This document shows, one piece after another, positions 1,236 to 41,711 of a stretch of 54,816 nucleotides of DNA. How positions within the stretch are numbered: the first letter of the stretch is position 1; every line of letters begins with the position of its first letter. The stretch is taken from positions 1 through 54,816 of the forward strand of contig JACQUD010000032.1 of the NCBI GenBank assembly GCA_016210485.1. Reading direction: 5' to 3'. The position numbers were made by a program, and so were the translations under genes. The notes below the pieces were generated by a model. It did no database searches and was not told the DNA's origin. It saw only the letters and a list, made by a program, of their open reading frames with translations. The stretch is from Chloroflexota bacterium. GTDB lineage: Bacteria; Chloroflexota; Dehalococcoidia; JACQUD01.

Positions 1236-2009
1236 GCCCCCCGTTCCCGGCTGCCTGGCTCTCTTCGCCTCCGCCTGCCACCGCTCGATGAGGCGCCGCT
1301 CGTTGGAAGTGAGCTGGGCGAGGGATAGGAGGTCGGGGCGGCGCTCCCAGGTCCGTCGCAAGGACTGGAGGCGGCGCCACTTGGCCACCTCTTCGTGGTT
1401 GCCGGAGAGGAGTTCCGACGGCACTTCCCATCCCTGAAATATAGTGGGCCGGGTATACTGAGGGTGCTCCAGGATGCCGGCGACGAAGGAATCCTCCCCT
1501 GCCGCCGCCCCCACCACCTCGGGAAGCAGCCTGACTACGGCATCCACCACCACCATGGCTGCCGGTTCCCCGCCGGTGAGCACGTAGTCGCCTATGCTGA
1601 GCTCGTCGGTGGCCAGATGCTGCCTCACCCGCTCGTCCACCCCTTCGTAGTGGCCGCAGAGGAGCAGGAAGCCCGGGAGATGAGACAGCTCCTGGGCCAC
1701 CCGGTGGCTGAAGGGGCGGCCCTGGGGAGTGAGCAGGATGACAGGGATACGGGCCTCAGCCCCCAACTCCTCCGACATCTCTTTGAGGGCAGCCTCCGCC
1801 GCCGAGAAAAGGGGCTCTGGCTTGAGGACCATCCCCGGGCCTCCGCCGTAGGGGTAGTCGTCCACCATCCGGTGCCGGCCCAGGCCGTGCTCCCGTAAAT
1901 TGTGCAGCACAATCTTGACCTGGCCCTGGGCAACCGCTCTGGCCAGGATACTCTCCCGGAAGACCCCGGCGAACATTCCGGGGAATAGAGTGATTATATC
2001 AATTCGCAT
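1176..2009 (-). CDS. trmD: tRNA (guanine37-N1)-methyltransferase
   Basis: [10 protein letters not shown] start, [52 protein letters not shown] motifs. Confidence 0.97.
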
Positions 2010-2511
2010 GGGGCTGGCTCGGCGGCGTCCCAGTGTGCTCCGTTACATCGCCTCGGAGGATCTCCAGCCCGTGGCCCAGGGCGGGGAGGATGGCCTCCAG
2101 GCTCTCCCTCACCCCTTTGGGGCTGCCCGGAAGATTCACGATGAGGGTCCGGCCCCGGACGCCGGCCACGCCCCGGCTGAGCATGGCCATGGGGGTCTTA
2201 CTCAGGCCCTGGGCGCGCATGGCCTCGGCCAAGCCCGGGACAGGCCTCTCGACGACCGACTGAGTGGCCTCGGGGGTGACATCCCGAGGCCCCAGGCCGG
2301 TGCCGCCGGTGGTCAGGATGAGGTCTAGCCCCTCCTTGGCCCAGCGCCGGAGGCGGCTGGCGATGGCGTCCCTCTCGTCGGGGACTACCTCGTAGCGGAC
2401 CTCCTGGAACCCCATGGGGAGGAGCATCTCCCGGATGACCTGGCCGCTGGTATCCTCCCGCTCCCCCCGGGAGCCTTTATCGCTGGCCGTCAGAATGCCC
2501 AGGGTGAACAT
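1999..2511 (-). CDS. MogA/MoaB-family molybdopterin adenylyltransferase
   Basis: [39 protein letters not shown] motifs; likely start MFTLGIL at 2511. Confidence 0.93.
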
Positions 2512-2622
2512 TATAGCCTCCGCTGGCTCCATCATAGCATAGCTGGCAGAGGGGATGAAGGCCAAAACACAAATTGTTCAGGGCGCTATATGCTATCTTA
2601 GAAGACTGAGAGTTAAGAAGAG

Positions 2623-3501
2623 ATGTCTCCAAGCCAGCTGACCCACATCCCTGTCCTCCTGAACGAGGTCCTGGCGGGTCTCCAGGTGCGCCCCGGGGGC
2701 CGCTACGTAGACGCCACGTTGGGGGCCGGGGGCCACGCCCAGGCCATCCTGGAGATCTGCTCGCCGGGGGGCAGGCTCCTAGGGCTGGACGCTGACCCCC
2801 AGGCCGTGGCCCTGGCTCAGGGGCGGCTGGAGAAGTTCGGCCCGGCGGCCACGCTGGTTTGCCGGAATTTTAGAGAACTGGCCGATGTCTGCCAGGAGCA
2901 TGGCTTCCACCCTGTGGATAGCATCCTCTTCGACCTGGGCCTCTCCTCCCTTCAACTGGAGGCCGAGGAGAGGGGTTTCAGCTTCCAGAGGGAAGGCCCC
3001 CTGGACATGCGCTTCGGCCCCGACCAGGAGCTCACTGCCGCCGACATCGTCAACACCTACTCTGAGCTGGAGCTGACCCGGCTCCTGGAAACCTACGGCG
3101 AGGAGCACCAGGCTCGCCTCATCGCCCGGCGCTTTGTCCGGTGCCGGCCCCTGAGGACCACCCTGGAGCTGGCGGAGGCCGTCGCTCAGGCCACAGGCGG
3201 TCGGCACGGGCGCATCCACCCTGCCACCAGGACCTTCCAGGCCCTGCGCATCGCCGTCAACAGCGAGCTGGAGAGCCTGGAGTTGGCTCTGAAGCAAGCG
3301 CCCGACTTGCTCAGAGAAGGGGGAAGGTTGGCCGTCATCGCTTACCACTCCCTGGAGGACCGTCCGGTGAAGCAGTTCCTGCGTCGGACGCACTCCCTGA
3401 GGCCCGTCAACAAAAAGGTGCTCCGGCCCTCTCGAGAGGAAGTGATGCGAAATCCTCGTAGTCGCAGCGCCCGGATGAGGGTGGCGGAGCGGGTTTTTTG
3501 A
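2623..3501 (+). CDS. rsmH: 16S rRNA m4C1402 methyltransferase
   Basis: [59 protein letters not shown]. Confidence 0.97.
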
Positions 3502-29389: not shown

Positions 29390-30052
29390 TCATTCCTGCT
29401 CCTGGAGCATCCGGAAGAAGGCCTGCCCCACCTCCACGATATCCGGAGGCAGGAGGTTCACCTGGCCCAGGGAGGCGGCCATGACATAGACCTGGGACGC
29501 CTTCTCCAGGAGCTCGGCGGCGGTGAGGGCCCGCCGCAGATCCCGGCCCACAGCCACGGCCCCATGATTGGCCAGGATGACGGCGTTGTGCCCTCCCAGA
29601 GCCGAGACCACGTTAGTCGAGAGCTCCTCGGAGGCAGGGAGACCGTAGGGAGCTACCGAGATGCCGCCCCCCAGGAACACCACCTGGTCATCCAGAATAG
29701 CGGGAAGCTCCCTCCCGGCCACAGCCAGGGCGCTGGCATAGACGGAGTGAGTATGGAACACAGCTCCTACGTCAGTTCGGGCGCGGTAGATGGCAGCATG
29801 GAGCAGGGTCTCCGCAGAAGGAACCAGGTCCCCCTCCACCGGCTCCGCCTCAAAGTCCACCACCACAATGTCCTCGGCAGACAGGGTGTCGTAGTAGCGG
29901 CGAGAGGGGGTGATGGCCATGAGGTCGCGGCCTTCGGCGGCGGACAGGCGACGGCTGACGTTGCCCGAGGTGCCCACCACCAGCCCCTTCTTTTCCATGA
30001 GGAGGCTAGCCTCCAGCACCTGCTGCCGCTCCTCCAACCAGCGAGTCATCAT
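29390..30052 (-). CDS. Class II aldolase/adducin family (FucA-like)
   Basis: GTSGNVS, AITPS, PSAETLLH, VFHTHS, LANHG zinc-ligand motifs. Confidence 0.92.
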   Translation of the reverse strand: MMTRWLEERQQVLEASLLMEKKGLVVGTSGNVSRRLSAAEGRDLMAITPSRRYYDTLSAEDIVVVDFEAEPVEGDLVPSAETLLHAAIYRARTDVGAVFHTHSVYASALAVAGRELPAILDDQVVFLGGGISVAPYGLPASEELSTNVVSALGGHNAVILANHGAVAVGRDLRRALTAAELLEKASQVYVMAASLGQVNLLPPDIVEVGQAFFRMLQEQE

Positions 30053-31563
30053 AGCACCTCCGGGCCCAATTGCTCCAGGCCCTGGGCCAGCTTTTGCCAA
30101 CGGCCGTAGCACTCCTGGTACTCGGCAGCTATGAGCGCCTCCGGCTCGTATGTTTGGAATGGGGGGAGCATGGCCTGGCAGGCCTCCTCCAGGCTGGAGT
30201 AGACGGTGGCTGCGCCAGCGGCCATGGCTGCTCCCAGGGTGGAGACGTGGGGCTGGGCCGACACCTTCACCGGCCGGTAGAGGACGTGGGCCAAGATGTG
30301 GCCCAGGAGGTGGCTGCGTGAAAGCCCCCCACCCACGTGCATACCCGATACCTCTATCCCAGAGATAGCCTCCAGCTGTGCACAGTTGGCCCTGAGGGCG
30401 AAGGCCAGGTTCTCCAGAAAGGCCCGGGCCAGATGGCCTCGGCTCACCGCGCCCAGGGAGCGAGGGACGGGAAAGAGGAAGCCACCCAGTCGCAACCCCA
30501 GGCGGCCCATATCCATGAGTTGGGGCCCCAGGAGAGCCAGGGTGCCCTCGGCCCCCAAGGGCGACGCCTGGGCCGCCGCCTCCAGAGAAACGTAGCCCTC
30601 AGACCCGTCGCCGGGGAACAGGATGTCCTTGAGCCAGCGATAGACGCTGCCAACCTCCCCGGCGTTGCCCTCCACCACCCAGCGTCCGGGGAAGGCATGG
30701 CAGCCCGTCCAGATGCGAGACTCCTTATCTATCAGAGGTCTCTCCAGGGGAAGCTGGAGGCTGGCGCTCCAGCCTGCCACTATCCCCCCCTGGCCCTCAG
30801 CGTAGACGCCCATACCCAGGAGACCACACTGGGTGTCAGCCCCACCCAGGGCCACCGGGGTGCCGGGGGCCAGGCCCGTCTCCTGAGCGGCGCGAGGCGT
30901 CACCACGCCCACCCGCGCTCCCGCCGAACCCAGGGGCGGGTAGATCCCCGAGGGCAGGTCCAGGAGCTTCCTGAGGCGCTCCGACCAGTCCCCCTGGCTT
31001 ATGTCTAGGAGGCCCACCTCCCCGACGCTGGAGACGGCGACTGCGGCCTCCCCGCACAGCCTATAAGTTACCCAGCCATCTAAGGGCAGCGCGCAGGCGA
31101 TTCTCTCGAAGTCCTTCGGCCTCTGGCTACAGAACCAGCGCAGCTTGGCCGGGGCGAAGAGGAAGGAGGGGCGGTGCCCGGTGATGGCGTATATCTCCTG
31201 TCCGAACTCCTCGTCCAGAGCCATGCCCTCCATGAAGGCGCGCAGGTCTACGTTGGGGCCGGCATATATCTCCTGCCCCTGGGCGTCCAGGAAGACCAGA
31301 CCCTCCCTCTGGCTGGTGGCGCTCACCGCCAGGATGTCTTTAGGAGAGGCCCCGCTGGCGGCCAGAGCATCCTGAATGGTCTGGGCTATAGCCCGCCAGA
31401 AGGTCCTGGGATCGAACTCGCGGCCCAGGGGAGCCAGGTCTCCGGGGGTCTCGTAGCTCCAGGAACGAGAGGCGAAGGCCACGGCCTGGCCTTGAAGGTC
31501 GACGATGAGACAGCGGCAACCTTCGGAGCCGGCGTCCAGGCCCATGAGGTATTTAGTGGCCAT
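30049..31563 (-). CDS. FGGY-family carbohydrate kinase, LsrK (AI-2 kinase)-like
   Basis: YLMGLDAGS, EFD, VSATSQREG, NVDLRA, GGADTQ, GGGLSRS. Confidence 0.88.
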   Translation of the reverse strand: MATKYLMGLDAGSEGCRCLIVDLQGQAVAFASRSWSYETPGDLAPLGREFDPRTFWRAIAQTIQDALAASGASPKDILAVSATSQREGLVFLDAQGQEIYAGPNVDLRAFMEGMALDEEFGQEIYAITGHRPSFLFAPAKLRWFCSQRPKDFERIACALPLDGWVTYRLCGEAAVAVSSVGEVGLLDISQGDWSERLRKLLDLPSGIYPPLGSAGARVGVVTPRAAQETGLAPGTPVALGGADTQCGLLGMGVYAEGQGGIVAGWSASLQLPLERPLIDKESRIWTGCHAFPGRWVVEGNAGEVGSVYRWLKDILFPGDGSEGYVSLEAAAQASPLGAEGTLALLGPQLMDMGRLGLRLGGFLFPVPRSLGAVSRGHLARAFLENLAFALRANCAQLEAISGIEVSGMHVGGGLSRSHLLGHILAHVLYRPVKVSAQPHVSTLGAAMAAGAATVYSSLEEACQAMLPPFQTYEPEALIAAEYQECYGRWQKLAQGLEQLGPEVL

Positions 31564-32551
31564 GCTGCCCCCAGGCCTGGGGATTGAGGAGATGCGCAGG
31601 TCGCTCTCCGCGCAAGAAGTGCAGGATGTCCTCAGCTATCATCTCCGAGTGCCGGGCGATGGTCTCTTGGGTAGCGCCGCCGATGTGTGGGGTGAGCACC
31701 ACGTTGTCCAAGCCCAGCAGGGGATTGTCCGGGGCCACGGGGTGGCTGGGGAATACGTCCAGGCCGGCCCCGGCCAGCCGTCCTTTTTTCAAGAAATCGG
31801 CCAGAGCCTCTTCATCGATAAGGGCGGCATCGGCGGTGTTTATGAGGTAAGCCGAAGGCTTCATCAAGGCCAGGCGCTCCTTATCGATGAGCCCCCGGGT
31901 GACATCAGTGGCCGGGCAATGGAGGCTGAGGAAGTCGGACTGGCGGAGCAGGGTCTCCATGTCCACCAAGGCAACCCCTGTGCCTTGGGCCTGAGCTGGC
32001 TGGACATAAGGATCGTGGGCCAGAACCTTCATGCCCAGGGCCGAGGCACGGCGGGCCAGCTCAGCGCCGATGGCCCCCAGTCCCACCAACCCCAGGGTCT
32101 TGCCCCCTAGCTCCAGCCCCCGCAAGGAGATGTAAGGTTCGGTAGGGTCTTCCCAGGCCCCCGAGGCCACCATCTGGTGGGCGGGAGGGATACGGCGGGC
32201 CAGACACAGCATGAGGGCCAGGGCCATCTCGGCCACGGCGGGAGCATTGCGCCCCGGGGTGTGCGCCACAAGGACGCCGTGCCGGGTGGCGGCATCCACG
32301 TCCACATTATTGGGGTTGCCTCGGCAGACTCCTAAAAATTTGAGACGGGGCGCTTGCTCGAAAGTCTCCTCGAAGACGAAATCGGCCTCCACTACCAGGA
32401 TAGCTATGTCCTCGCCGCTCAATCTCTCCGCCAGTTCCTCAGGAGAGTATAATCTCCGGCTATCCAGCCAGCTTTCGTAGGCGACTTCCAACTCGGCCCG
32501 GAGCTTTTCCAGAGCCGGGGAGGAGAAGGGGGCCAGGATAAGGGCTTTCAT
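31553..32551 (-). CDS. D-isomer-specific 2-hydroxyacid dehydrogenase family protein with atypical active site
   Basis: TPGRNA, GLVGLGAIG, SLHCP, TPHIGG; INTADA and DVFPSHP replace INxARG and DVFxxEP. Confidence 0.88.
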   Translation of the reverse strand: MKALILAPFSSPALEKLRAELEVAYESWLDSRRLYSPEELAERLSGEDIAILVVEADFVFEETFEQAPRLKFLGVCRGNPNNVDVDAATRHGVLVAHTPGRNAPAVAEMALALMLCLARRIPPAHQMVASGAWEDPTEPYISLRGLELGGKTLGLVGLGAIGAELARRASALGMKVLAHDPYVQPAQAQGTGVALVDMETLLRQSDFLSLHCPATDVTRGLIDKERLALMKPSAYLINTADAALIDEEALADFLKKGRLAGAGLDVFPSHPVAPDNPLLGLDNVVLTPHIGGATQETIARHSEMIAEDILHFLRGERPAHLLNPQAWGQHGH

Positions 32552-32681: not shown

Positions 32682-33170
32682 CTATCGGATGAGGAAGTCC
32701 GCCACCTTCCGAAAGTTCTCCGGCACCAGACGGAGGACAAAGGGGAAGTAGTCCAGGAGCCGGGAGGCCAGGGCCGAGTCTTTCAGCGTTGGCTCCAGAT
32801 CGATGTAGTGGGAGGCCAGGAGGATGAGCACCAGGCTGACCAACGTCCCCAGGACCAGCCCGATAGCACCTCCGGCCAGACGGTTCAGCCATCCCAGCAT
32901 TATAAGAGAGAGGGCCTTACTGATGAGAGAAGCGATAATGGCCGAGGCCACCAGCGCCGCCACCAGGATTATGGCGAAGGCAGCGAACCGGGCCAGGCTA
33001 CTCTCCGAGGAGAGGACGTTGCTAGCCAGGGGCTGGTAGTAGCGCATGGCCGCCACCACCCCCACGGCCGTCCCTACGAGGGGCAGGACCAGCTTCACCG
33101 CCCCCATGAGCAACCCCGTTACTCCCAGGGCTATGGCAGCGACCAGGACAAACATATCTAGCCAGTTCAT
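32682..33170 (-). CDS. CvpA-family membrane protein
   Basis: MNWLD start, 4 TM segments, LGWLNRLAGGAIG, C-terminal S.LA. Confidence 0.85.
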   Translation of the reverse strand: MNWLDMFVLVAAIALGVTGLLMGAVKLVLPLVGTAVGVVAAMRYYQPLASNVLSSESSLARFAAFAIILVAALVASAIIASLISKALSLIMLGWLNRLAGGAIGLVLGTLVSLVLILLASHYIDLEPTLKDSALASRLLDYFPFVLRLVPENFRKVADFLIR

Positions 33171-33215: not shown

Positions 33216-33650
33216 TTACTTCGGCATCAGATTGATGGTGCGCAGCACCTCTTGAGCATCCACTTCGGTGTCGATACAGCCGTCCTTGTGGAGAGGGATA
33301 ATGATAATGGCAGGGTCCAGCCCTTCCTGGCTCATCTGCTTCACCCCCTCCACCCCCAGAGCCAGTTCCTGAGCACAGGCCACGGCCACGATGCCCCGGG
33401 GCTGATGCTGCTTCACAAAGCGGAGAGCCATGGCCCCGCCAGCGGCGACGCAGACCCCGGCGTAGCCCAGGCGCAAGGCCTCCTGGCGGAAACGGTGGAT
33501 GACGCACTTCTCCAAGCAGTCCTCGGGGCACTGAAGACCTTCTTTGGTGTATTTGCCGAGGCAAGTCTCGCTGGGGCGGAGACAATGGGGAAGGAGGAGA
33601 ACCCTCCGATTAGGAGCCACCTGGGTCAAGTCCTGACCTACAGCTTCCAT
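33216..33650 (-). CDS. DUF116-family Cys-rich protein
   Basis: LLLPHCLR..C, CxxxCxxxC, VAAGG, IVAVAC..EL, GCIDT. Confidence 0.85.
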   Translation of the reverse strand: MEAVGQDLTQVAPNRRVLLLPHCLRPSETCLGKYTKEGLQCPEDCLEKCVIHRFRQEALRLGYAGVCVAAGGAMALRFVKQHQPRGIVAVACAQELALGVEGVKQMSQEGLDPAIIIIPLHKDGCIDTEVDAQEVLRTINLMPK

Positions 33651-33672
33651 CTGTTACCTCCTATCCTCTAAT

Positions 33673-35586
33673 CTAAGGTAAGGCCCTCTGGAACTGGCCC
33701 AGGGCCATCAGGGGGAAATAGTTTCGATACAGATGATAGTTGATCATGAAGTCGCCAGGGAAGCCAGTGCCGGTGAAGTAGGGTTCCTCCCAGGTGCCGT
33801 CCTCCCTTTGGGTATCCATAAGATATCGGATGCCGCGGAGCACCTCAGGGCTGGGCCCTTCGGCAGCCAGGAGACCCATGATGGCCCAGGCCGTCTGGGA
33901 GGCGGTGGAGGGGCCTTGGCCACGAAGGGAGGGATTCTTATAGGAGTCGCAGGACTCCCCCCAGCCCCCATCCGGGTTATGGCGAGCCTTGAGCCAGGCG
34001 GCAGCCCGCCGAATGTATTCCTGCCCCATATCCTCCCCAGCAGCCTTGAGGGCCAGCATAGCCGACCAGGTGCCGTAGATATAGTTTACCCCCCAGCGCC
34101 CGAACCAAGCGCCATCGGCCTCCTGTTCCTTCTTCAGATAGGACAGGCCCCGGGCCGATGGACGATAGGTGAGGGGGTAGCCCAGCCGCCCCAGCATCTC
34201 CAACATGTGGGCAGTGACATCGGCGGAGGGAGGGTCCAGGAACTCGCCGAAGTCGGCGAAGGGGATCTGGGCCAGAGGCCCCTTGTTGTTGTCCATGTCG
34301 AAAGCGCCCCAACCCCCGTTGCGGCTCTGCATGCTCACCGACCAGACGACGCCCCTCTCTATGGCCTCTTCCAGGGCTTCTCTTTCAGGCAAGGAGACCT
34401 TCTTCAGGGCTATCACTACCTCGGCCACGTCGTCCACGTCGGGATAGAGGTCGTTCTCGAACTCGAAGGCCCAACCCCCGGGGGGCGTCCTGGGGTTCTT
34501 CACCTGCCAGTCGCCCCCGGCCATTATCTGCTCCTGGAGAAGCCAGCGGGCCGACCTCTGGAGGGCGGGGTGGTCGGGAGAGAGGCCGGAGTCAGCCAGG
34601 GCAATGACAGCCAGAGCAGTGTCCCACACCGGGGAGACGCAGGACTGGTGGTGCCAGGAGTCCCCCTCATCTATGGCGAAGGCCTCGAACCCTTGAAGCC
34701 CTTTGACCATTACTGGATGGTCCATAGGATAGCCCCGGAGCTTGAGGGCCAGGAGGGAGTAGACCCAGGGGGGCTGGATGCCACCCCAGGAGCCATCGGC
34801 CTCCTGGTGCTCCACGATCCAGCCCTCGGCCCGGCGCAGGGCGGCGCTCCGGCCCGGCTTCCAGGGAAGCTTATCGTAGGCCCGGAAGGCCCGGTCCAGG
34901 GCCAGGAAGAAGGACTTCCAGCTCGCCCAGCGCTGTCTCCGAGGCATGGCAAAGGCATCATGAGGTAGAGGCTGGGGGTAAAGCTCCTGGATGTCCATGG
35001 GCAGGGTGCAGCGAGGCTTCTTGTGGAGGATGACGAGCATGGGGACTACGGTTCCCCGTGCCCAGCAGGCGAACTCGTAGATATTTAGATAAAACCAGTT
35101 GGGCAATAGCACGACCTCCGGAGGCATGGCCGGCACTCCCTTCCAGGGGAACTGACCGAATAGGGCCAGCCATATCTTGGTGAAGACCCTGGCCCTGGGG
35201 ATGCCCCCCCTGGCCAGGATGAACTCTCGGGCCTTCCTCATGAAATCGGCCTCGGGAGAGATGCCCGCCACCTTGAGAGCGAGGTAGGCCTCGATGGTGG
35301 TGCTCAGGTCGCCGGGGCCACCATACCATATGGCCCAGGTGCCATCGGGGCGCTGGTGGCTCCGGATGTAGTTGGCTATCTGCCTCTCCCGCTCGGGCAG
35401 GGGGACGCCCAGGAAGCGACGCAGTAGGAGGTATTCCGCGGTTATGGTCACGTTGGACTCCAGCTCCCCGGCCCAGTAGCCCTGGGGGGCCTGAGTGCGC
35501 ATGAAGTAGCCCTGGGAGCGCTGGAGGGCCAAGGACAGGCGCTCCTGGAGTCCCCTATCTTTAGTCAGCGTTTCAATCTCCATCAC
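33673..35586 (-). CDS. shc: Squalene-hopene cyclase
   Basis: YPDVDD (DxDD), multiple QW repeats, SPVWDT, GRWGVNYIYG, GTGFP. Confidence 0.97.
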   Translation of the reverse strand: MMEIETLTKDRGLQERLSLALQRSQGYFMRTQAPQGYWAGELESNVTITAEYLLLRRFLGVPLPERERQIANYIRSHQRPDGTWAIWYGGPGDLSTTIEAYLALKVAGISPEADFMRKAREFILARGGIPRARVFTKIWLALFGQFPWKGVPAMPPEVVLLPNWFYLNIYEFACWARGTVVPMLVILHKKPRCTLPMDIQELYPQPLPHDAFAMPRRQRWASWKSFFLALDRAFRAYDKLPWKPGRSAALRRAEGWIVEHQEADGSWGGIQPPWVYSLLALKLRGYPMDHPVMVKGLQGFEAFAIDEGDSWHHQSCVSPVWDTALAVIALADSGLSPDHPALQRSARWLLQEQIMAGGDWQVKNPRTPPGGWAFEFENDLYPDVDDVAEVVIALKKVSLPEREALEEAIERGVVWSVSMQSRNGGWGAFDMDNNKGPLAQIPFADFGEFLDPPSADVTAHMLEMLGRLGYPLTYRPSARGLSYLKKEQEADGAWFGRWGVNYIYGTWSAMLALKAAGEDMGQEYIRRAAAWLKARHNPDGGWGESCDSYKNPSLRGQGPSTASQTAWAIMGLLAAEGPSPEVLRGIRYLMDTQREDGTWEEPYFTGTGFPGDFMINYHLYRNYFPLMALGQFQRALP

Positions 35587-35598
35587 CTAATTCGCCCT

Positions 35599-36642
35599 TC
35601 ACCCAGGGCCTGCCTGTCCCCCCGCTTTCAGGGGCGTCGAGCGGGCCTGGGGAGTCTTCTTCACGTATCCGTGGTCCAGAAACCAGCGGGCGGCGTCCAC
35701 CAGAGCATGCCCAATGGGAGTCTGGGGGAGGCCCAGCTCCCGGACGGCCTTGGAGGCATCGTAATACATGGGCTTGCGGGCCATCCTCACCCCCTCCAGA
35801 GGGATGCGCGGCTCCCTCCGGAGAAGCTTGCCCTCGATAGCATAGTCGATGTAGCCCAAGGCCAGGGCCAGCCCCCAGGGGAGGCGATGCCGGGGGGCTG
35901 GCAGCCCCGTCACCTCAGCCAGCTTCTGAAGGAGGTCCTTCATAGTCAAATTCAAGTGGCCCAGGATGTAGCGACAGCCAGTTTTTCCCCTCTCCAGGGC
36001 CAGAATGTGTCCCCGGGCCACATCCCGGACATGGACGACGTTGAGGCCGGTGTCGATATAGGCCGGCATGCGGCCGTTGAGGAAGTCCAGCACTATGCGC
36101 CCGGTAGGGGTGGGCTTGGCATCCCAAGGGCCGATAGGGGTGGAGGGGTTGACAATGACCACGGGCAGGCCCTCGGCGGCGAATCTCAGGGCCACCTTCT
36201 CCGCCAGATATTTGGACCTCTTGTAGTGGCCCACCAGGCCCCGGGAGTCCAGTAGCGTATCCTCGGTGCCGGAGCCGTGGGGGAGCCGACCCACAGCGGC
36301 GACGCTGCTGGTGTAAACAACCTTCTCTATCCCTATTTTCTGGGCTGCGGCCAGGATATTCTCGGTGCCCTGGACGTTAGCCCGATATATGGCCTGGGGA
36401 TGGCGATGCCAGAGGGTGTAGGCGGCGGCGGCGTGGAAGAGGGCCTGGCAACCCTCCAGGGCCAGACCCAGGGAGGCTGTCTCCGTTATGTCCCCCTGGG
36501 CCAGCTCCACATCCAGCCCCTTCAGGCTAGCGGTGTTGCTGGTAGGGCGAACCAAGGCTCTCACCTGGTAGCCAGAGGCCAGGAGCTCTCGCACCAGGTT
36601 AGCCCCGATGAAGCCGGTGGCGCCGGTGACCAGGACTCTCAT
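35599..36642 (-). CDS. hpnA: Hopanoid-associated NAD-dependent epimerase/dehydratase
   Basis: VTGATGFIG, YTSS, HYKRSK, NPSTPIGPWDAKPTPTG; located between hpnG and shc. Confidence 0.9.
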   Translation of the reverse strand: MRVLVTGATGFIGANLVRELLASGYQVRALVRPTSNTASLKGLDVELAQGDITETASLGLALEGCQALFHAAAAYTLWHRHPQAIYRANVQGTENILAAAQKIGIEKVVYTSSVAAVGRLPHGSGTEDTLLDSRGLVGHYKRSKYLAEKVALRFAAEGLPVVIVNPSTPIGPWDAKPTPTGRIVLDFLNGRMPAYIDTGLNVVHVRDVARGHILALERGKTGCRYILGHLNLTMKDLLQKLAEVTGLPAPRHRLPWGLALALGYIDYAIEGKLLRREPRIPLEGVRMARKPMYYDASKAVRELGLPQTPIGHALVDAARWFLDHGYVKKTPQARSTPLKAGGQAGPG

Positions 36643-37445
36643 ATGTCTCCCTGCCCCGCTTTGAAGACGTTCTCTCTTCCCACCCGCCCACCCAGAGGCG
36701 GGGCTGCACCCCCTGCCCAGTCCACTCCAGTAAAATGGCTTTCCTCCTGGTAAGCGGACGAGCGGATAAGCTCCCGGGTGAAAGCGATGGCCCAGGCCCC
36801 CAGGGCACGCGAGGCCCGACGGGAGCGGAGGCCCAGGCAAAGGAATCCATGCCAATGCTGGGGTCTCAGGACAAAATATCTTATGGCTTTTCCAGCCAGC
36901 AAACGCCCGTCGGCATTGATGAAAGGGTTGAGGTCGGGCACGAACTCCTCCTGGGGGTCAAGGACGGCCCGAACTGAGAGGAAGGGGAGGCCCTTTTCTT
37001 GGGCGGCCCACCCCACCCAGAAGCTCTCCATATCCACCACCTGCACCCCTAGGCCCCGGCCCAGAGCCTCCTTTTCCTTAGGGGAGGTAGCCACGCAGTT
37101 TTGGGTAAGGCCCTCGCCTTCCCTCCAAGGGAAAGATGTAGCCTCGATGGCCCGCCGGGCGACCTCCAGGAGGGCAGGATGACACACCACGCTCCTCGGC
37201 TCTTCTTTCTCTCCATGCCAGTGCACCCGACGGCATAGCACCAACTCCCCCGGCCTCAGACCAGGCTGAGTCCCCCCGGAGAAGCCCAGGGAGACCAGGG
37301 CGCAGTGGGGATGGGCCGCCAGCGCTTTAGCGACCCCCACCTCCGTAGCCCACCGCCCCATCCCTGTGGCCAGGGCCAGGGCGTCTGTTCCCAGGCCTCG
37401 AATCCTCGCTATCTCCTGGGGCATGGCGCTGAGAAAGACTATCAT
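36639..37445 (-). CDS. hpnG: Adenosylhopane nucleosidase/phosphorylase
   Basis: AMPQE, TGMG, SLGFSGG, VVDMES, SVRAVLD; translationally coupled to hpnH; C-terminal tail runs through a repeat element. Confidence 0.82.
   Translation of the reverse strand: MIVFLSAMPQEIARIRGLGTDALALATGMGRWATEVGVAKALAAHPHCALVSLGFSGGTQPGLRPGELVLCRRVHWHGEKEEPRSVVCHPALLEVARRAIEATSFPWREGEGLTQNCVATSPKEKEALGRGLGVQVVDMESFWVGWAAQEKGLPFLSVRAVLDPQEEFVPDLNPFINADGRLLAGKAIRYFVLRPQHWHGFLCLGLRSRRASRALGAWAIAFTRELIRSSAYQEESHFTGVDWAGGAAPPLGGRVGRENVFKAGQGDI
36666..36712 (-). repeat. Hairpin + G-quadruplex dispersed element, copy 3
   Basis: Minus strand GGGGT-GCA-GCCCC, 6 nt, GGGTGGGCGGGTGGG (36693-36679), AAGAGAGAACGTC. Confidence 0.72.
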
Positions 37446-38479
37446 CCCGGCCTCCGCCCGTTGATGGAGCCGGCCCTGGGGGCAGTGAGGTTCCACTTCA
37501 GCATCTGCCACATCGCCCTGGGGCTGCGGGTGGCCAGAAGCACCGCCGAGGCCTCGAAGCCGGAGTGCACCATGCAGTTCTGGCAGCGAGGGTCCCGCCC
37601 AGTGCCGTAGTTCTCCCAGGGCGTCTCCTTCATGAGCTGGGCAAAAGATGTAGCGTGTCCATCGGTGATGAGATAGCAGGGCCGCTTCCATCCCTTGACA
37701 TTCCGGGTTGGGTTACCCCACGGGGTGCAAGAAAGCTGCCGCTGTCCGGCCAGGAACTGAAGGTATAGGGGCGAGTTATAGAAAGACACCCATCCCTTCA
37801 TCCCATAGATGGTCTGAAACAGGCCATGGACATCCTTCCGGGTGAGGAAGAGATCATCCCGCACCTCCTGATAGCTGAAGGCGGGGGAGACCATGACCCC
37901 GTCCACCCCCACCCTGCCCAGCATTCGAAACAGCTCTTCTATCTCTCGGAGGTCGGTCCCCTTGTAGATGGTAGTGTTGGTGTAAACCCTGAAACCGGCT
38001 GACTTGGCCGCCTCGATGCTCTCCAGAGCCTTGCCAAAGACCCCGGGGCGGCAGGCGATGGCATCGTGGGTGGCCTCCAGGCCATCCAGGTGGATGCCGA
38101 AGCTCAGATATGGGCTGGGCTGGAACTTGTGCAGCGACTGCTTCACCAGTAGCCCGTTGCTGCACAGTATTACGAAGCGCCGCCGCTGGATTATCTCAGC
38201 CACTATTCGGTCCATATCCGGCAGGACAAGAGGTTCCCCACCGGTGATGGCCACCACCGGTGCTCCAGACTCCTCCACCGCCTCCAGACACTCCTCCCGA
38301 GAGAGGCGCTGTCCCAGGGTATCGGCATATTCCCGGATGCGGCCACAGCCGGCGCAGCTCAGGTTGCACTGGAAAGTGGGCTCCAGCATGAGAACCAGGG
38401 GGAAACGACGGCTGAGAGTCAGACGCCGCCCCAGCAAGTAGCGGGCCAGGCTCAAGCTCAGCCTTAGGGGATAAGCCAT
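37442..38479 (-). CDS. hpnH: Radical SAM adenosylhopane synthase
   Basis: RFPLVLMLEP..CNLSCAGCG, CTPWGNPTRN..GW..PCYL, YGTGRDPRCQNCMVHSGFE. Confidence 0.95.
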   Translation of the reverse strand: MAYPLRLSLSLARYLLGRRLTLSRRFPLVLMLEPTFQCNLSCAGCGRIREYADTLGQRLSREECLEAVEESGAPVVAITGGEPLVLPDMDRIVAEIIQRRRFVILCSNGLLVKQSLHKFQPSPYLSFGIHLDGLEATHDAIACRPGVFGKALESIEAAKSAGFRVYTNTTIYKGTDLREIEELFRMLGRVGVDGVMVSPAFSYQEVRDDLFLTRKDVHGLFQTIYGMKGWVSFYNSPLYLQFLAGQRQLSCTPWGNPTRNVKGWKRPCYLITDGHATSFAQLMKETPWENYGTGRDPRCQNCMVHSGFEASAVLLATRSPRAMWQMLKWNLTAPRAGSINGRRPG

Positions 38480-38491
38480 GATTTCCTCAAA

Positions 38492-39523
38492 CTAATAATC
38501 CCGCTCCACCAGGAAGGTGGCCATATCCTGGAGCTCGGCATCCCAGGGTGGGCAGAGCTGGCCTCCCAGGGCAATCAGCGCCTCTTCTTTCAGCGCCCTG
38601 GCTTTGTCCTGGGCCTGCTCCCTGACTCTCAATTCCTCCAGCAATTGAAGGACACAGCCTATCTCCGTCTCCTCCAGGGGGCTGCCACTGGCATAGAGAG
38701 AGAGGAGCTCGTCCCGGGCCGTGCCTGTGGCCTTCTCCAGGGCCAGGACTACAGGGTAGGACTTCTTGCGGCGACGGAGATCGCCGCCCAGAGGCTTGCC
38801 TGTAGACTCCTCCCGACCCCATATGCCCAGGATGTCGTCTCTGATCTGGAAGGCCAGACCCAGCTTTCGCCCGGCGTTGCAGAAGGCCTCCGCGGTGGTC
38901 CCATCCCCGCCACCAAGGAGTGCCCCAAGGTGCAGGGAGCAGCCGATGAGGGCCGCCGTCTTCCTCTCCACCATCTCCAAATAGGCCTGAGTGGCTATAT
39001 CCAGGCGGCTCTCATAGCTGAGGTCCAAGTATTGCCCCTCTATCATCTCAAGAATGCTCCGGTCCAGGAGACGAGAGGCCTGGAGCCTTTTCGGGATAGG
39101 CACTCCCTGGCCTTCCAAACGCTCCAGGGCTCGGCCCGCCAGGATGCGCAGGGCGTTGCCGGCGTTGAGGGCTTGAGCTTTGCCCCAAAGATACCACAGG
39201 GTGGGGCGATGGCGGCGCTGGCTGTCCCCGTCCTGGATGTCGTCGTGAACCAGGGAGAAGTTATGCGCCAGCTCCAGGGCGGCGGCAGCGGGCAGGGCCT
39301 GTTCCATATCTCCCCCCACGGCCTGGCAGGCCAGAAGGCAGAGGGTGGGGCGCAGGGCCTTTCCCCCGAATCCAGGGCCGGGGTTCCCATGCTCATCCAT
39401 CCAGCCCAGGTGGTAATGGAGGAGCTGTCGGCAGGGGATATCCTCCGGGGCCAGGATTTCCCTCAGCTCCCTCTCGATGCAGGAGCGATAGCGTAAGAAA
39501 GCCATAGGTAGCTCCATAGACAT
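38492..39523 (-). CDS. Short-chain polyprenyl diphosphate synthase (FPP/GGPP, type I-like)
   Basis: GKALRP, HNFSLVHDDIQD..RR (FARM with Phe at -5), GQYLD, KT, FQIRDDIL. Confidence 0.93.
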   Translation of the reverse strand: MSMELPMAFLRYRSCIERELREILAPEDIPCRQLLHYHLGWMDEHGNPGPGFGGKALRPTLCLLACQAVGGDMEQALPAAAALELAHNFSLVHDDIQDGDSQRRHRPTLWYLWGKAQALNAGNALRILAGRALERLEGQGVPIPKRLQASRLLDRSILEMIEGQYLDLSYESRLDIATQAYLEMVERKTAALIGCSLHLGALLGGGDGTTAEAFCNAGRKLGLAFQIRDDILGIWGREESTGKPLGGDLRRRKKSYPVVLALEKATGTARDELLSLYASGSPLEETEIGCVLQLLEELRVREQAQDKARALKEEALIALGGQLCPPWDAELQDMATFLVERDY

Positions 39524-39530
39524 CTCCTCT

Positions 39531-41417
39531 TCAGGCTCGTAGAGAAGAGGCCTGAGCGATCTCCGGGAAGCTGGCCAGAGCCTGGTGGGCGATGCCGGAG
39601 GCGTCGATGCCGTAGAGGGAGCGCAGGAGGGTTTGGGGGCCATGCTCGATGAAGTCATCAGGAAGGGCCAGGGTTAACAAGCGAGCCTGGCTCTGGGCCG
39701 TAGCCAGAAGATGGGCCACCTGGCTGCCGAAACCCCCGCTCAGGGTGTTCTCCTCCACCGTCACCAACCGACTCGTCTCTTCGGCGGCCTGGAGGATGAG
39801 GTCTCTGTCCAGGGGCTTGGCGAAGCGGGCGTTGATGACCCGGGCCGAGACGCCTTGCTTCTCCAGCATCTGTGCCGCCTCGAGGGCCGGGTGGACGGAG
39901 TTGCCCAGGGCTATCAGGGTCAGGTTCCGGCCCTCGCGGAGCACTTCGCCTTTGCCTATGGGCAGCTCATTCAAAGATGGAGATAGGGGCACTCCCAGGC
40001 CACCCCCCCGAGGATAGCGCACCGCCATGGGCTGTCCACAGCGCAAAGCTGTGTAAAGCAGGTGGCGCAGCTCGTCCTCATCCTTAGGAGCAGCCACTAT
40101 CATATTGGGCACAGCGCAAAGATAAGAGATGTCGAAGGTGCCCTGGTGGGTCTTGCCGTCATCGCCTACTATGCCAGCTCGATCTATAGCGAAGGTGACG
40201 GGGAGGTTCTGGATGCAGACGTCATGGATGATCTGGTCATAGGCCCTTTGCAGAAAGGTGGAATACACAGCGACGATGGGTGTGAAGCCCTGGGAGGCCA
40301 GACCCGCGGCCATGGTAACGGCGTGCTGCTCACAGATTCCCACATCGAAGACACGGTCGGGATAGTGCTCCTTGGCCAGGGCCAGGCCGGTGCCATCCAG
40401 CATGGCGGCGGAGATGGCCACTGCCTTGGGGTTGTCCTGAAGGAGCTGGCAGACCGTCTGGCCGAAGACGCTGCTGTAGGATGGGGTGGAGTCCTTGGAT
40501 TCCTTCGGGGGTACGCCGTGATAGGCCACGGCATCCTCCTCTGCCGGCGGGTATCCCTCGCCCTTTTGGGTCAGCACATGGACCAGGACTGGCCCTCGAC
40601 CCCGCTCTCGCGCCCAGAGGAGAGCCCTCTCCAGTTGCGCCAAATCGTGGCCAGGGATGGGACCCAGATACTCGAAGCCCATCTCCCTCCAGAAAGTAGT
40701 CGGGGCCATCAGACCGAGGATGAAGTTCTTAAGGCGTTCCCCCAAAGCCCATATTCGAGCGCCCAGGGGCAGACGGCGGACCACGATCCAAGCGTCTCTT
40801 TTGGCCCTCCGATAGCCGGGGCTGGCCCGGACACGGCTAAGACGTTTAGCCAAAGCGCCCACGCTGGGCGATATGGCCATCCCATTATCGTTGAGGACCA
40901 CGGTGAGGCGAGTTCCCAGGTGTCCAGCGTGGTTCAGAGCTTCGAAGGCCATACCCCCGCCCAGAGCTCCATCGCCTATAATGGCCACTACATGGTAAGA
41001 CTCCCCTGAGAGATCTCGGGCCAAGGCCATACCCGTGGCCGCGGAAATGGATGTGGAAGCGTGGCCGGCGCCGAAGGCGTCGTGGCAACTCTCCTCCGGG
41101 CTGGTGTAGCCGGATAGCCCGCCATACTGCCGCAAGCTGGTAAACTTGTCCCTCCGGCCCGTTATGAGCTTGTGAGGATAGCTCTGGTGCCCCACATCCC
41201 AGACTATTTTATCGTTGGGGCTGTGAAAGACCCGGTGCAAGGCCAGGGTGAGCTCCACCACCCCCAAATTGGAGGCCAAATGTCCCCCATTCAGGCTTAC
41301 GGTGGCGATGAGCCTCTCCCGAATCTCCCCGGCCAGTTCTTCCAATTGGGGAAGGCTAAGGGTCTGGAGCTGCCCCGGCTCGTCGATGGTGTTCAAGATG
41401 TCTAGCTTGGTGCCCAT
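39531..41417 (-). CDS. dxs: 1-deoxy-D-xylulose-5-phosphate synthase
   Basis: GGHLASNLG, WDVGHQSYPHK, GDGA..G...EALN, NDN, DRAGIVGDDG.THQG; start 41417 or 41453. Confidence 0.96.
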   Translation of the reverse strand: MGTKLDILNTIDEPGQLQTLSLPQLEELAGEIRERLIATVSLNGGHLASNLGVVELTLALHRVFHSPNDKIVWDVGHQSYPHKLITGRRDKFTSLRQYGGLSGYTSPEESCHDAFGAGHASTSISAATGMALARDLSGESYHVVAIIGDGALGGGMAFEALNHAGHLGTRLTVVLNDNGMAISPSVGALAKRLSRVRASPGYRRAKRDAWIVVRRLPLGARIWALGERLKNFILGLMAPTTFWREMGFEYLGPIPGHDLAQLERALLWARERGRGPVLVHVLTQKGEGYPPAEEDAVAYHGVPPKESKDSTPSYSSVFGQTVCQLLQDNPKAVAISAAMLDGTGLALAKEHYPDRVFDVGICEQHAVTMAAGLASQGFTPIVAVYSTFLQRAYDQIIHDVCIQNLPVTFAIDRAGIVGDDGKTHQGTFDISYLCAVPNMIVAAPKDEDELRHLLYTALRCGQPMAVRYPRGGGLGVPLSPSLNELPIGKGEVLREGRNLTLIALGNSVHPALEAAQMLEKQGVSARVINARFAKPLDRDLILQAAEETSRLVTVEENTLSGGFGSQVAHLLATAQSQARLLTLALPDDFIEHGPQTLLRSLYGIDASGIAHQALASFPEIAQASSLRA

Positions 41418-41711
41418 ATGGATACCTCGTATACCGATGCTCCATTTTACCAATCGGGCAGCCCCTTTGTCAACCGAGCGCTATGAGATCGTTTACTAAA
41501 AACTCATTATCCCCCCCGCTCAGGTTACCCCCTTTCGGGCTGAGCCCCAGAACAAAACTATGACAGGTCATCTCCCCAAAAAGCCCCTGGGCCGATGGAT
41601 TTAGGAGCTTGAAATGCACCTCTACGCAACCTGCGGCCAAAAGATTGCGGGATAATCTAGCTTCGTCATATAATTGGCACAGTGTCCCTTCAGCGTTAAG
41701 GAGGTTAACCT

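Follow-up and report, generated by a model that had tools for sequence, protein, structure and literature searches.

A stretch of 54,816 nucleotides (positions 1 to 54,816 of contig JACQUD010000032.1, assembly GCA_016210485.1 of a Chloroflexota bacterium of the class Dehalococcoidia; hereafter the window) was analyzed with respect to a hopanoid operon on its minus strand, in which the gene of a small cysteine-rich DUF116 protein (33216–33650, 144 aa) directly follows shc, the gene of the squalene-hopene cyclase (SHC). The DUF116 protein was found to be a good candidate for a replacement of squalene synthase function, with an estimated probability of about 0.7. With slightly less confidence, the protein itself would be the catalyst of squalene formation, which makes it a candidate for a non-homologous squalene synthase. 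Four independent lines of genomic evidence speak for this candidacy. A preliminary description of this DNA, made from the sequence alone, had suggested that the step from farnesyl diphosphate (FPP) to squalene may proceed by an undescribed route involving DUF116. Distribution, anticorrelation and fusions support this as the best reading of the genomic data. No published description of a replacement of squalene synthase by DUF116 was found.

To our knowledge, only two routes to squalene are known, the squalene synthase Sqs and the HpnC/HpnD/HpnE system (HpnCDE), both of which come from the same enzyme family. These two are also the only routes named in the available portions of a 2026 review (PMC13459092). 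The HpnCDE route passes through presqualene diphosphate and hydroxysqualene (Pan et al., 2015, as cited in the available portions of PMC7306690 and PMC13459092). For SHC-bearing anammox bacteria, Desulfurobacterales and Desulfuromonadales, the lack of any trans-IPPS head-to-head enzyme was described, and unknown precursor pathways or squalene uptake were suggested (Santana-Molina, 2020, PMC7306690, text available in part). In a Bipolaricaulota isolate, a cluster of DUF116, YjbQ, IspH, SHC, HpnH and a polyprenyl synthase is given in the legend of Fig. S12, where DUF116 is left uncommented (10.1101/2025.11.21.689855). The available portions of McShea 2025 (PMC12414744) and of PMC12324291 contain no mention of DUF116. 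Literature on DUF116 function or on a third squalene route was not found in a search largely outside of which the subscription journals lay.

The genome containing the window (G000) comprises 1.24 Mb in 76 contigs and is 69% complete. Neither in the window nor in the whole assembly could a match to SQS_PSY (PF00494), HpnC, HpnD or Sqs be found. A dedicated profile built from 31 HpnC, HpnD and Sqs sequences of class relatives and run without filters against all six frames of this genome gave a best E-value of 2.5, and a tblastn search of the genome for squalene synthases gave no match. For HpnE, the best match reached 80 bits compared to a cut-off of 283, and only weak FAD-fold matches were seen. 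A synthase of the SQS_PSY family as part of the hopanoid gene set (Sqs, or HpnC and HpnD together with HpnE) was therefore not found in this genome. The preliminary description had reported the lack of these genes for the operon, and the whole-genome search for SQS_PSY and HpnE extended it to the 69% complete assembly. Since the assembly is incomplete, this absence proves little on its own, and the weight of the argument rests on the relatives.

For this purpose 401 genomes sampled evenly from this class, G000 among them, were analyzed. SHC (E ≤ 1e-50; 115 of the 121 over the cut-off) was found in 121 genomes, PF00494 in 173 and PF01976, the Pfam family of DUF116, in 14. Among the 121 SHC-positive genomes, 113 carry PF00494 only, six PF01976 only, none both and two neither; the sets were rechecked by script. 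PF00494 is absent from all 14 PF01976-positive genomes, compared to 173 of 401 overall. Ten of these 14 have the short stand-alone type, and in the other four PF01976 is a weak C-terminal domain of LplA-like proteins. The six SHC-positive genomes with PF01976 only (G000, G039, G043, G057, G328 and G343) are 69, 93, 69, 97, 96 and 92% complete, respectively, and DUF116 is located directly 3′ of shc in all six.

A second even sample comprised 141 genomes from the phylum of G417, with records labelled Bipolaricaulota or Acetothermia. Here SHC was found in 89, PF00494 in 59 and PF01976 in 37 genomes, and PF00494 and PF01976 did not occur together in any of them. The 89 SHC-positive genomes are divided into 53 with PF00494 only, 34 with PF01976 only, none with both and two with neither. 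When both samples are pooled, 166 of the 210 SHC-positive genomes have SQS_PSY only, 40 have DUF116 only and none has both; PF00494 is present in 166 of the 170 without DUF116. The anticorrelation that had been anticipated for SHC-bearing genomes was thus observed in two phylum-level samples. Naive Fisher tests for the complementary distribution gave values of 1e-22 (class) and 7e-9 (Bipolaricaulota), which are overstated because related genomes are not independent. In three of the four SHC-positive genomes with neither gene, the shc locus itself is affected: the contig of G245 runs out precisely at the 3′ terminus of shc, and in G565 and G571 (Bipolaricaulota) SHC is a fragment or borders a contig end. 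An alignment search for DUF116 in all four at E ≤ 1 gave nothing real. Five of the Bipolaricaulota SHC matches (G417, G425, G426, G473 and G474) were reported with one in-frame TGA each, which may be an N-terminal alignment overhang, the SHC open reading frame (ORF) itself being open in locus L063.

These counts bear on the explanation that nothing new is present, so that Sqs or HpnCDE was missed as unassembled or divergent, or squalene is taken up, and DUF116 is a passenger. The incomplete genome of the window is in line with it, and squalene uptake has been offered for SHC-bearing anaerobes without these enzymes (Santana-Molina, 2020, PMC7306690, text available in part). It is nevertheless highly improbable. 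PF00494 is absent from every shc-DUF116 genome of the class (six in number, including four of 92–97% completeness and one assembled as a single contig) and from all 34 of the corresponding Bipolaricaulota, whereas almost every SHC-positive genome without DUF116 has it; the class-specific profile found nothing in the genome of the window. The reservation in the preliminary description that the synthase could simply be encoded outside of the window fails for the 92–97% complete relatives with shc-DUF116 and without SQS_PSY, one of which (G343) is a single contig of 2.3 Mb. A squalene synthase encoded elsewhere is accordingly very unlikely. Scavenging of squalene is argued against by the precursor genes that the operon itself carries (dxs, pps and often idi2), and uptake does not fit an operon that opens with these genes. 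A passenger gene would not share a slot in two phyla or be fused to SHC, as described below.

The position of DUF116 in the operon was compared between relatives. In the class, the backbone is (dxs)-pps-(idi2)-hpnH-hpnG-hpnA-shc-X-2-hydroxyacid dehydrogenase-FGGY kinase. X is DUF116 in G000, G039, G043 and a dozen named loci. In G400 and G084 the slot holds one Sqs-like gene, for which squal_synth is the best model (121–125 bits), and in G106, G158, G065 and G359 it holds HpnC plus HpnD. Between G039 and G400, DUF116 versus Sqs is the sole difference in this stretch. The 2-hydroxyacid dehydrogenase gene, followed by the FGGY kinase gene and then by an aldolase gene in some cases, is located 3′ of the slot in all three operon types (DUF116, Sqs and HpnCD). 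The Bipolaricaulota operon reads pps-hpnH-hpnG-(ispG)-shc-ispH-UPF0047-X, where X is DUF116 in G432 and a pair of SQS_PSY genes followed by an amine oxidase gene (HpnCDE) in G488. In two operon architectures, one gene of approximately 150 aa therefore takes the place of one to three squalene-synthesis genes.

A special role of HpnA in the squalene step, with HpnA as a partner of DUF116, had been proposed as well. It was rejected, since all three operon types alike contain hpnA.

In an SHC tree of 79 rows, at least five changes are needed to explain the DUF116 label. Two Sqs-type SHCs are nested within a large DUF116-type clade, the SHC of the window pairs with that of G245 among HpnCD-type sequences, and the Bipolaricaulota DUF116 clade is the sister of one HpnCD-type sequence. 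Four independent contrasts could be drawn on the tree; the loss of SQS_PSY went together with DUF116 in 3.8 of the four on average, and the reverse was never seen. According to this tree, the swap between squalene synthase and DUF116 would have happened several times, with only about four evolutionarily independent switches seen.

For a wider view, 185,579 species genomes were scanned by pattern, which yielded 291 relatives; the neighborhood counts refer to the best 80 of these 291 loci. Their labels are Chloroflexota (Dehalococcoidia and Anaerolineae), Bipolaricaulota, Actinomycetota, Thermotogota, Fidelibacterota and one 'delta proteobacterium'. DUF116 is flanked by shc in 58 of the 80 loci; when only the 64 loci whose upstream sequence spans 2.5 kb or more are considered, the count is 50. 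The distance between shc and DUF116 is below 150 nt in 29 loci, 1.0–1.6 kb in 26 and of other length in three. An SQS homologue was not found in the flanks of any of the 80. The whole-genome search for PF00494 covered 73 of these loci, which correspond to 72 distinct genomes, the other seven being duplicates of searched genomes. PF00494 was found in three of these 72 further genomes with close DUF116; two of the matches are CrtB-like and occur without SHC, and the third belongs to G404, which is discussed below.

In 12 of the 22 loci without shc, a pps, idi2, dxs or hpnH-like gene is located beside DUF116, and SHC was found nowhere in the 15 genomes of such loci that were checked. This indicates that DUF116 is tied first to the supply of prenyl diphosphates. 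In this respect the SHC-less carriers of DUF116 resemble canonical squalene synthases, as 60 of the 173 PF00494-positive class genomes are also without SHC. Two loci of one genus, L036 (G011, 90% complete) and L037 (G052, 73%), have the order dxs-pps-idi2-hpnH-like-DUF116 and no SHC genome-wide, which leaves these genomes with an HpnH homologue without a hopene substrate.

To analyze the natural fusions of DUF116, its profile was run against 1.84 billion representative proteins. This search resulted in 984 DUF116 matches at E ≤ 0.001, 394 at E ≤ 1e-10 and 27 of the close type at E ≤ 1e-30, and the long proteins were scanned with Pfam. The protein P0145 (801 aa) is a full-length SHC with a C-terminal DUF116 domain, and P0143 and P0138 are truncated SHC-DUF116 proteins with differing linkers. 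Each of these three is a singleton on one contig, so that single errors are possible, yet their sequences differ. DUF116 was further found fused to polyprenyl synthases (P0132, with a divergent DUF116 domain of 36% identity, and P0255), to a 4Fe-4S ferredoxin domain (P0243) and to a Pyr_redox domain (P0156). Fusion partners of DUF116 thus include the enzymes on either side of the squalene step as well as electron-input modules of two kinds. The link between DUF116 and the prenyl synthase, suggested in the preliminary description, is backed by these natural fusions. A DUF116-polyprenyl synthase fusion was also described for Pirellula staleyi, together with a proposed role in electron transfer (Makarova, 2015, PMC5898192, text available in part).

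The DUF116 protein of the window exceeds the gathering threshold of PF01976, which is its sole match in Pfam and NCBIfam, and has the conserved cysteines; the family corresponds to COG1852/arCOG02078. Eight cysteines (positions 23, 30, 41, 45, 49, 67, 92 and 125 in the numbering of the window protein) are invariant in 40 homologues. The cysteine-rich character described previously was confirmed, with exactly eight instead of about seven cysteines. The spacing is C-x6-C-x10-C-x3-C-x3-C, followed by three cysteines at strand ends. Also common to the 40 homologues are R25, Y63 and GG at positions 71–72, together with a near-invariant acidic run D123-G-C-V-D-T-E-V-D131. The invariant or near-invariant residues D123, D127, E129 and D131 and R16/R25 adjoin cysteines.

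An AlphaFold2 model of the protein (predicted local distance difference test 83, predicted template modeling score 0.82) has an alternating order of strands and helices. In the model, C23, C67, C92 and C125 are located at C-terminal strand ends, whereas C30, C41, C45 and C49 are found in an insert with a small hairpin, which suggests two metal sites. The cysteine pattern and the ferredoxin and Pyr_redox fusions are consistent with binding of one or two iron-sulfur (Fe-S) clusters; zinc or disulfide chemistry may be present instead. A Foldseek search of the model against the PDB gave no match at E ≤ 0.001, and a search of the DUF116 profile against PDB sequences nothing below an E-value of 0.47. 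The matches in the ESM Atlas were limited to clusters of DUF116 and a single unnamed cluster (0.77). Membership of DUF116 in the SQS_PSY/trans-IPPS head-to-head family was rejected, as PF01976 is the only match and the model is a three-layer alpha/beta structure and not all-helical.

Based on these results, the following pathway is proposed. The operon-encoded Dxs and polyprenyl synthase would lead to FPP. DUF116, as an oxygen-sensitive Fe-S enzyme and probably a homo-oligomer, would receive electrons from a ferredoxin or a flavoprotein and join two FPP reductively between C1 and C1′ (2 FPP + 2 e− → squalene + 2 diphosphate). Squalene would then be handed to SHC and converted to diploptene, the side chain of which would be extended by HpnH, HpnG and HpnA. 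The catalytic role of DUF116 itself, as opposed to that of a subunit of an unknown enzyme, is probable on the genomic evidence, and the chemistry is a proposal. As an analogy for this chemistry, IspH cleaves an allylic C–O bond reductively with a [4Fe-4S] cluster. The likeness to IspH and IspG is only in the way of working, a two-electron reductive allylic C–O cleavage at an Fe-S cluster fed by ferredoxin or flavodoxin. No homology exists between these proteins (LYTB and GcpE) and DUF116, and IspH makes no C–C bonds. An alternative would be a thiol/sulfonium route via S-farnesyl cysteine, which is known from old model chemistry.

The cysteine content and the putative flavodoxin-like fold of the model also fit an explanation in which DUF116 is only an electron carrier, serving as reductant of HpnH or of IspG/IspH, and squalene is made by another unrecognized protein encoded elsewhere. 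Electron transfer had been proposed for this family (Makarova, 2015, PMC5898192, text available in part). Furthermore, hpnH is found in most DUF116 loci, including the SHC-less ones with dxs-pps-idi2-hpnH-like-DUF116, ispH and ispG are located beside DUF116 in Bipolaricaulota, and the ferredoxin and Pyr_redox fusions can be read in the same way. This explanation is nonetheless unlikely. The genes hpnH, ispG and ispH occur equally in HpnCD- and Sqs-type operons, yet DUF116 was found in none of the 166 genomes with SHC and SQS_PSY. Several loci have DUF116 beside pps, idi2 or dxs while hpnH is absent. A role as mere carrier leaves the squalene synthase slot and the fusions to SHC and polyprenyl synthase unexplained, and it needs a second unknown enzyme.

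The polyprenyl synthase of the operon was compared between the operon types. Its best models and scores are equal in DUF116- and Sqs-type operons, and the identity to the enzyme of the window is 41–57% in DUF116-type and 42–53% in Sqs/HpnCD-type loci. An alignment of 36 DUF116-type with 11 Sqs/HpnCD-type sequences contained no discriminating column, and genomes of both types have two to three polyprenyl synthase genes. Judged by sequence, the enzyme is the same orthologue across the operon types. The idea that it is a disguised head-to-head enzyme was rejected, since no column discriminates and the gene number is equal. A second polyprenyl synthase of the genome of the window (G000:C64:41-976), located on a 2.3-kb contig, is 49% identical to the operon copy.

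The same comparison is of importance for a further explanation, in which DUF116 and the polyprenyl synthase feed SHC with a substrate other than squalene, for example a reductively dephosphorylated head-to-tail polyprene, leading to non-hopane cyclic isoprenoids. The SqhC enzyme of Firmicutes was described to cyclize a non-squalene substrate (PMC7306690, text available in part), and the close DUF116 type is also found without SHC. The polyprenyl synthases are, however, indistinguishable between the operon types, the DUF116-type SHCs reach 700–880 bits with the hopene-cyclase equivalog model, the Sqs-type SHCs are nested in the DUF116-type clade, and the genes of the diploptene-modifying proteins HpnH, HpnG and HpnA are retained. 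Formation of a different substrate is therefore considered improbable, even more so than the role as electron carrier, and squalene remains the preferred product.

Several observations weigh against a replacement of squalene synthase by DUF116. The predicted fold is generic, putatively flavodoxin-like and unlike any prenyl-diphosphate-converting enzyme, and a VIA-align comparison with 48,161 chains resulted only in generic, unrelated alpha/beta domains (Z 6.3–7.8). We know of no precedent for an Fe-S-dependent 1-1′ coupling of prenyl groups. DUF116 is also fused to PPDK_N/PEP-utilizer proteins away from shc (P0122 and P0142), and more distant DUF116 domains are found in unrelated contexts, such as LplA-like and PEP-utilizer fusions. 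As these distant domains occur in unrelated contexts, the DUF116 family could be a general electron-transfer module. In methanogens, DUF116 was described in sulfite-reductase neighborhoods (Makarova, 2015, PMC5898192, text available in part). About one quarter of the genomes with close-type DUF116 have no SHC (four of ten in the class sample and all 15 of those further checked). G034, which is 95% complete, has SHC and neither SQS_PSY nor DUF116, which makes it a true exception; in its locus (L039), pps-shc is directly followed by the genes of the FGGY kinase and the 2-hydroxyacid dehydrogenase. G404 has shc-DUF116 together with Sqs-like and HpnC-like genes on other contigs. Most of the genomes examined are metagenome bins. 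The sign test over the four contrasts of the SHC tree gave p = 0.125, a test in which no significance can be reached with four pairs only.

Some of the fusions and distant relatives were characterized further. P0122, P0139 and P0142 (loci L096 and L116) carry a close DUF116 domain (approximately 55% identity) on PigC/RedH- or PEP-synthase-like proteins with a PEP-utilizers swivel domain, in one case together with PPDK_N; they are labelled Anaerolineae or Anaerolineales and are not located beside shc. In L028 (G007, 352–1929) and L029 (G022, 1342–3087), proteins of 525–581 aa resemble lipoate-protein ligases by sequence only and end in a weak DUF116-like cysteine-rich domain (PF01976, approximately 40 bits) of a different subfamily and context; in each case a neighboring ORF resembles a geranylgeranyl-reductase-type FAD protein. 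Of 14 control genomes, the archaea Methanocaldococcus jannaschii and Methanosarcina acetivorans are the only two with a PF01976 match, and both are free of PF00494 matches; the latter species has a weak SHC-family match.

Compared to the known enzymes, DUF116 has the same presumed net role as Sqs, the formation of squalene for SHC from two FPP and two reducing equivalents, and in the close relatives G400 and G084 Sqs is found in the same position directly after shc. Sqs belongs to SQS_PSY with the class I isoprenoid-synthase fold, whereas DUF116 is a predicted alpha/beta protein of 144 aa with eight invariant cysteines and no DxxxD pair. The reductant of Sqs is synthase-bound NADPH, while that of DUF116 would be an Fe-S or flavoprotein chain. 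HpnC/HpnD/HpnE occupies the same operon slot in both phyla with a distribution complementary to that of DUF116, but consists of three genes (two SQS_PSY and an FAD amine oxidase) compared to one small DUF116 gene. In the DUF116-polyprenyl synthase fusion systems, a DUF116 domain is likewise linked with a polyprenyl synthase, there in fused and divergent form. Unlike in these systems, the DUF116 of the window is unfused and belongs to a genuine hopanoid operon, so that its likely product can be named. Classical hpn clusters (Streptomyces, Zymomonas and Burkholderia) likewise contain shc, hpnH, hpnG, hpnA, dxs and a polyprenyl synthase; they carry hpnCDE, where the operon of the window has DUF116. 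A scheme of the Burkholderia hopanoids is given in PMC13459092 (text available in part).

The operon of the window consists of dxs, pps, hpnH, an hpnG-like gene, hpnA, shc, DUF116 and cvpA, tightly packed on the minus strand. Its first gene, dxs (1-deoxy-D-xylulose-5-phosphate synthase, 39531–41417; TIGR00204 763 bits, cut-off 466), has an ATG start, and its frame was checked. A sigma-70-like promoter match is located 5′ of it (41444–41473, minus strand), with TTGACA, a spacer of 18 nt and a TG-extended TAAAAT (11 of 12 positions); this was obtained by a consensus scan and is a match by pattern only. The short-chain trans-polyprenyl diphosphate synthase gene pps (38492–39523; PF00348 206 bits, best NCBIfam models all under their cut-offs) encodes the presumed supplier of FPP. 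It is followed by hpnH for the radical SAM adenosylhopane synthase (37442–38479; TIGR03470 442 bits, cut-off 225; Radical_SAM and DUF3463), the gene of an hpnG-like nucleosidase/phosphorylase (36639–37445; TIGR03468 97 bits, under the cut-off of 187; PF01048 44 bits), hpnA for a hopanoid-associated protein of the NAD-dependent epimerase/dehydratase family (35599–36642; TIGR03466 460 bits, cut-off 368) and shc (33673–35586; TIGR01507 810 bits, cut-off 431), the product of which has the DxDD-type motif DVDD at residue 383. The DUF116 gene (PF01976 104.8 bits, cut-off 25) begins 22 nt 3′ of shc, and its ATG is preceded by GGAGG at a distance of 6–7 nt. The last gene of the block encodes a cvpA-family membrane protein (32682–33170; PF02674 74 bits).

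The intergenic distances from dxs to cvpA are 7, 12, −4, −4, 12, 22 and 45 nt, and the next gene lies a further 130 nt away; the 4-nt overlaps are those of the hpnG start with the hpnH stop and of the hpnA start with the hpnG stop. All eight tightly packed genes named in the preliminary description were found on this strand, although cvpA is located outside of the region beginning at 33216 that had been assigned to the operon, and the hpnG call is weak, whereas HpnH and HpnA exceed their cut-offs. In a tblastn comparison with the related loci examined, only the window had cvpA at this place. As it is missing from the syntenic relatives, cvpA is probably not part of the hopanoid pathway.

Downstream of the operon, a module on the same strand (29390–32551) comprises the genes of a 2-hydroxyacid dehydrogenase (31553–32551) and an FGGY kinase (30049–31563), both identified by Pfam, and a third ORF (29390–30112), whose counterpart in G039 and G400 belongs to the class II aldolase family. 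The module following the slot was also found in L030, L041, L129, L130, L136 and L141. It might function in hopanoid side-chain (ribose) metabolism. Elsewhere in the window, the G+C content falls to 0.50 between 50001 and 52000, compared to 0.56–0.66 in the rest.

Methanogens contain squalene. On a broader and tentative reading, which is rather doubtful at present, the whole DUF116 family would consist of ancient oxygen-sensitive Fe-S enzymes that reductively couple or dephosphorylate prenyl diphosphates. They would be the source of squalene in strictly anaerobic hopanoid producers and methanogens, and the source of substrate for the orphan 'SHC-like' cyclases of the Planctomycetes-Verrucomicrobia-Chlamydiae group. 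If this were true, it would account for the squalene of anammox planctomycetes, Desulfuromonadales and Desulfurobacterales, for which neither Sqs nor HpnCD has been found (groups named in the available portions of PMC7306690), and for squalene-type hydrocarbons in methanogens.

For the operon type described here, the locus provides a single-gene, named candidate for the missing squalene source of SHC-bearing anaerobes. If the replacement of squalene synthase by DUF116 is true, the potential for hopanoid and squalene formation would be under-called in Chloroflexota, Bipolaricaulota and some Actinomycetota by screens based on Sqs and HpnCDE, and sedimentary hopane records could include strict anaerobes that are now scored as incapable of making the precursor. 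It would also mean a new C–C bond-forming Fe-S chemistry and a very small squalene-forming catalyst for engineering.

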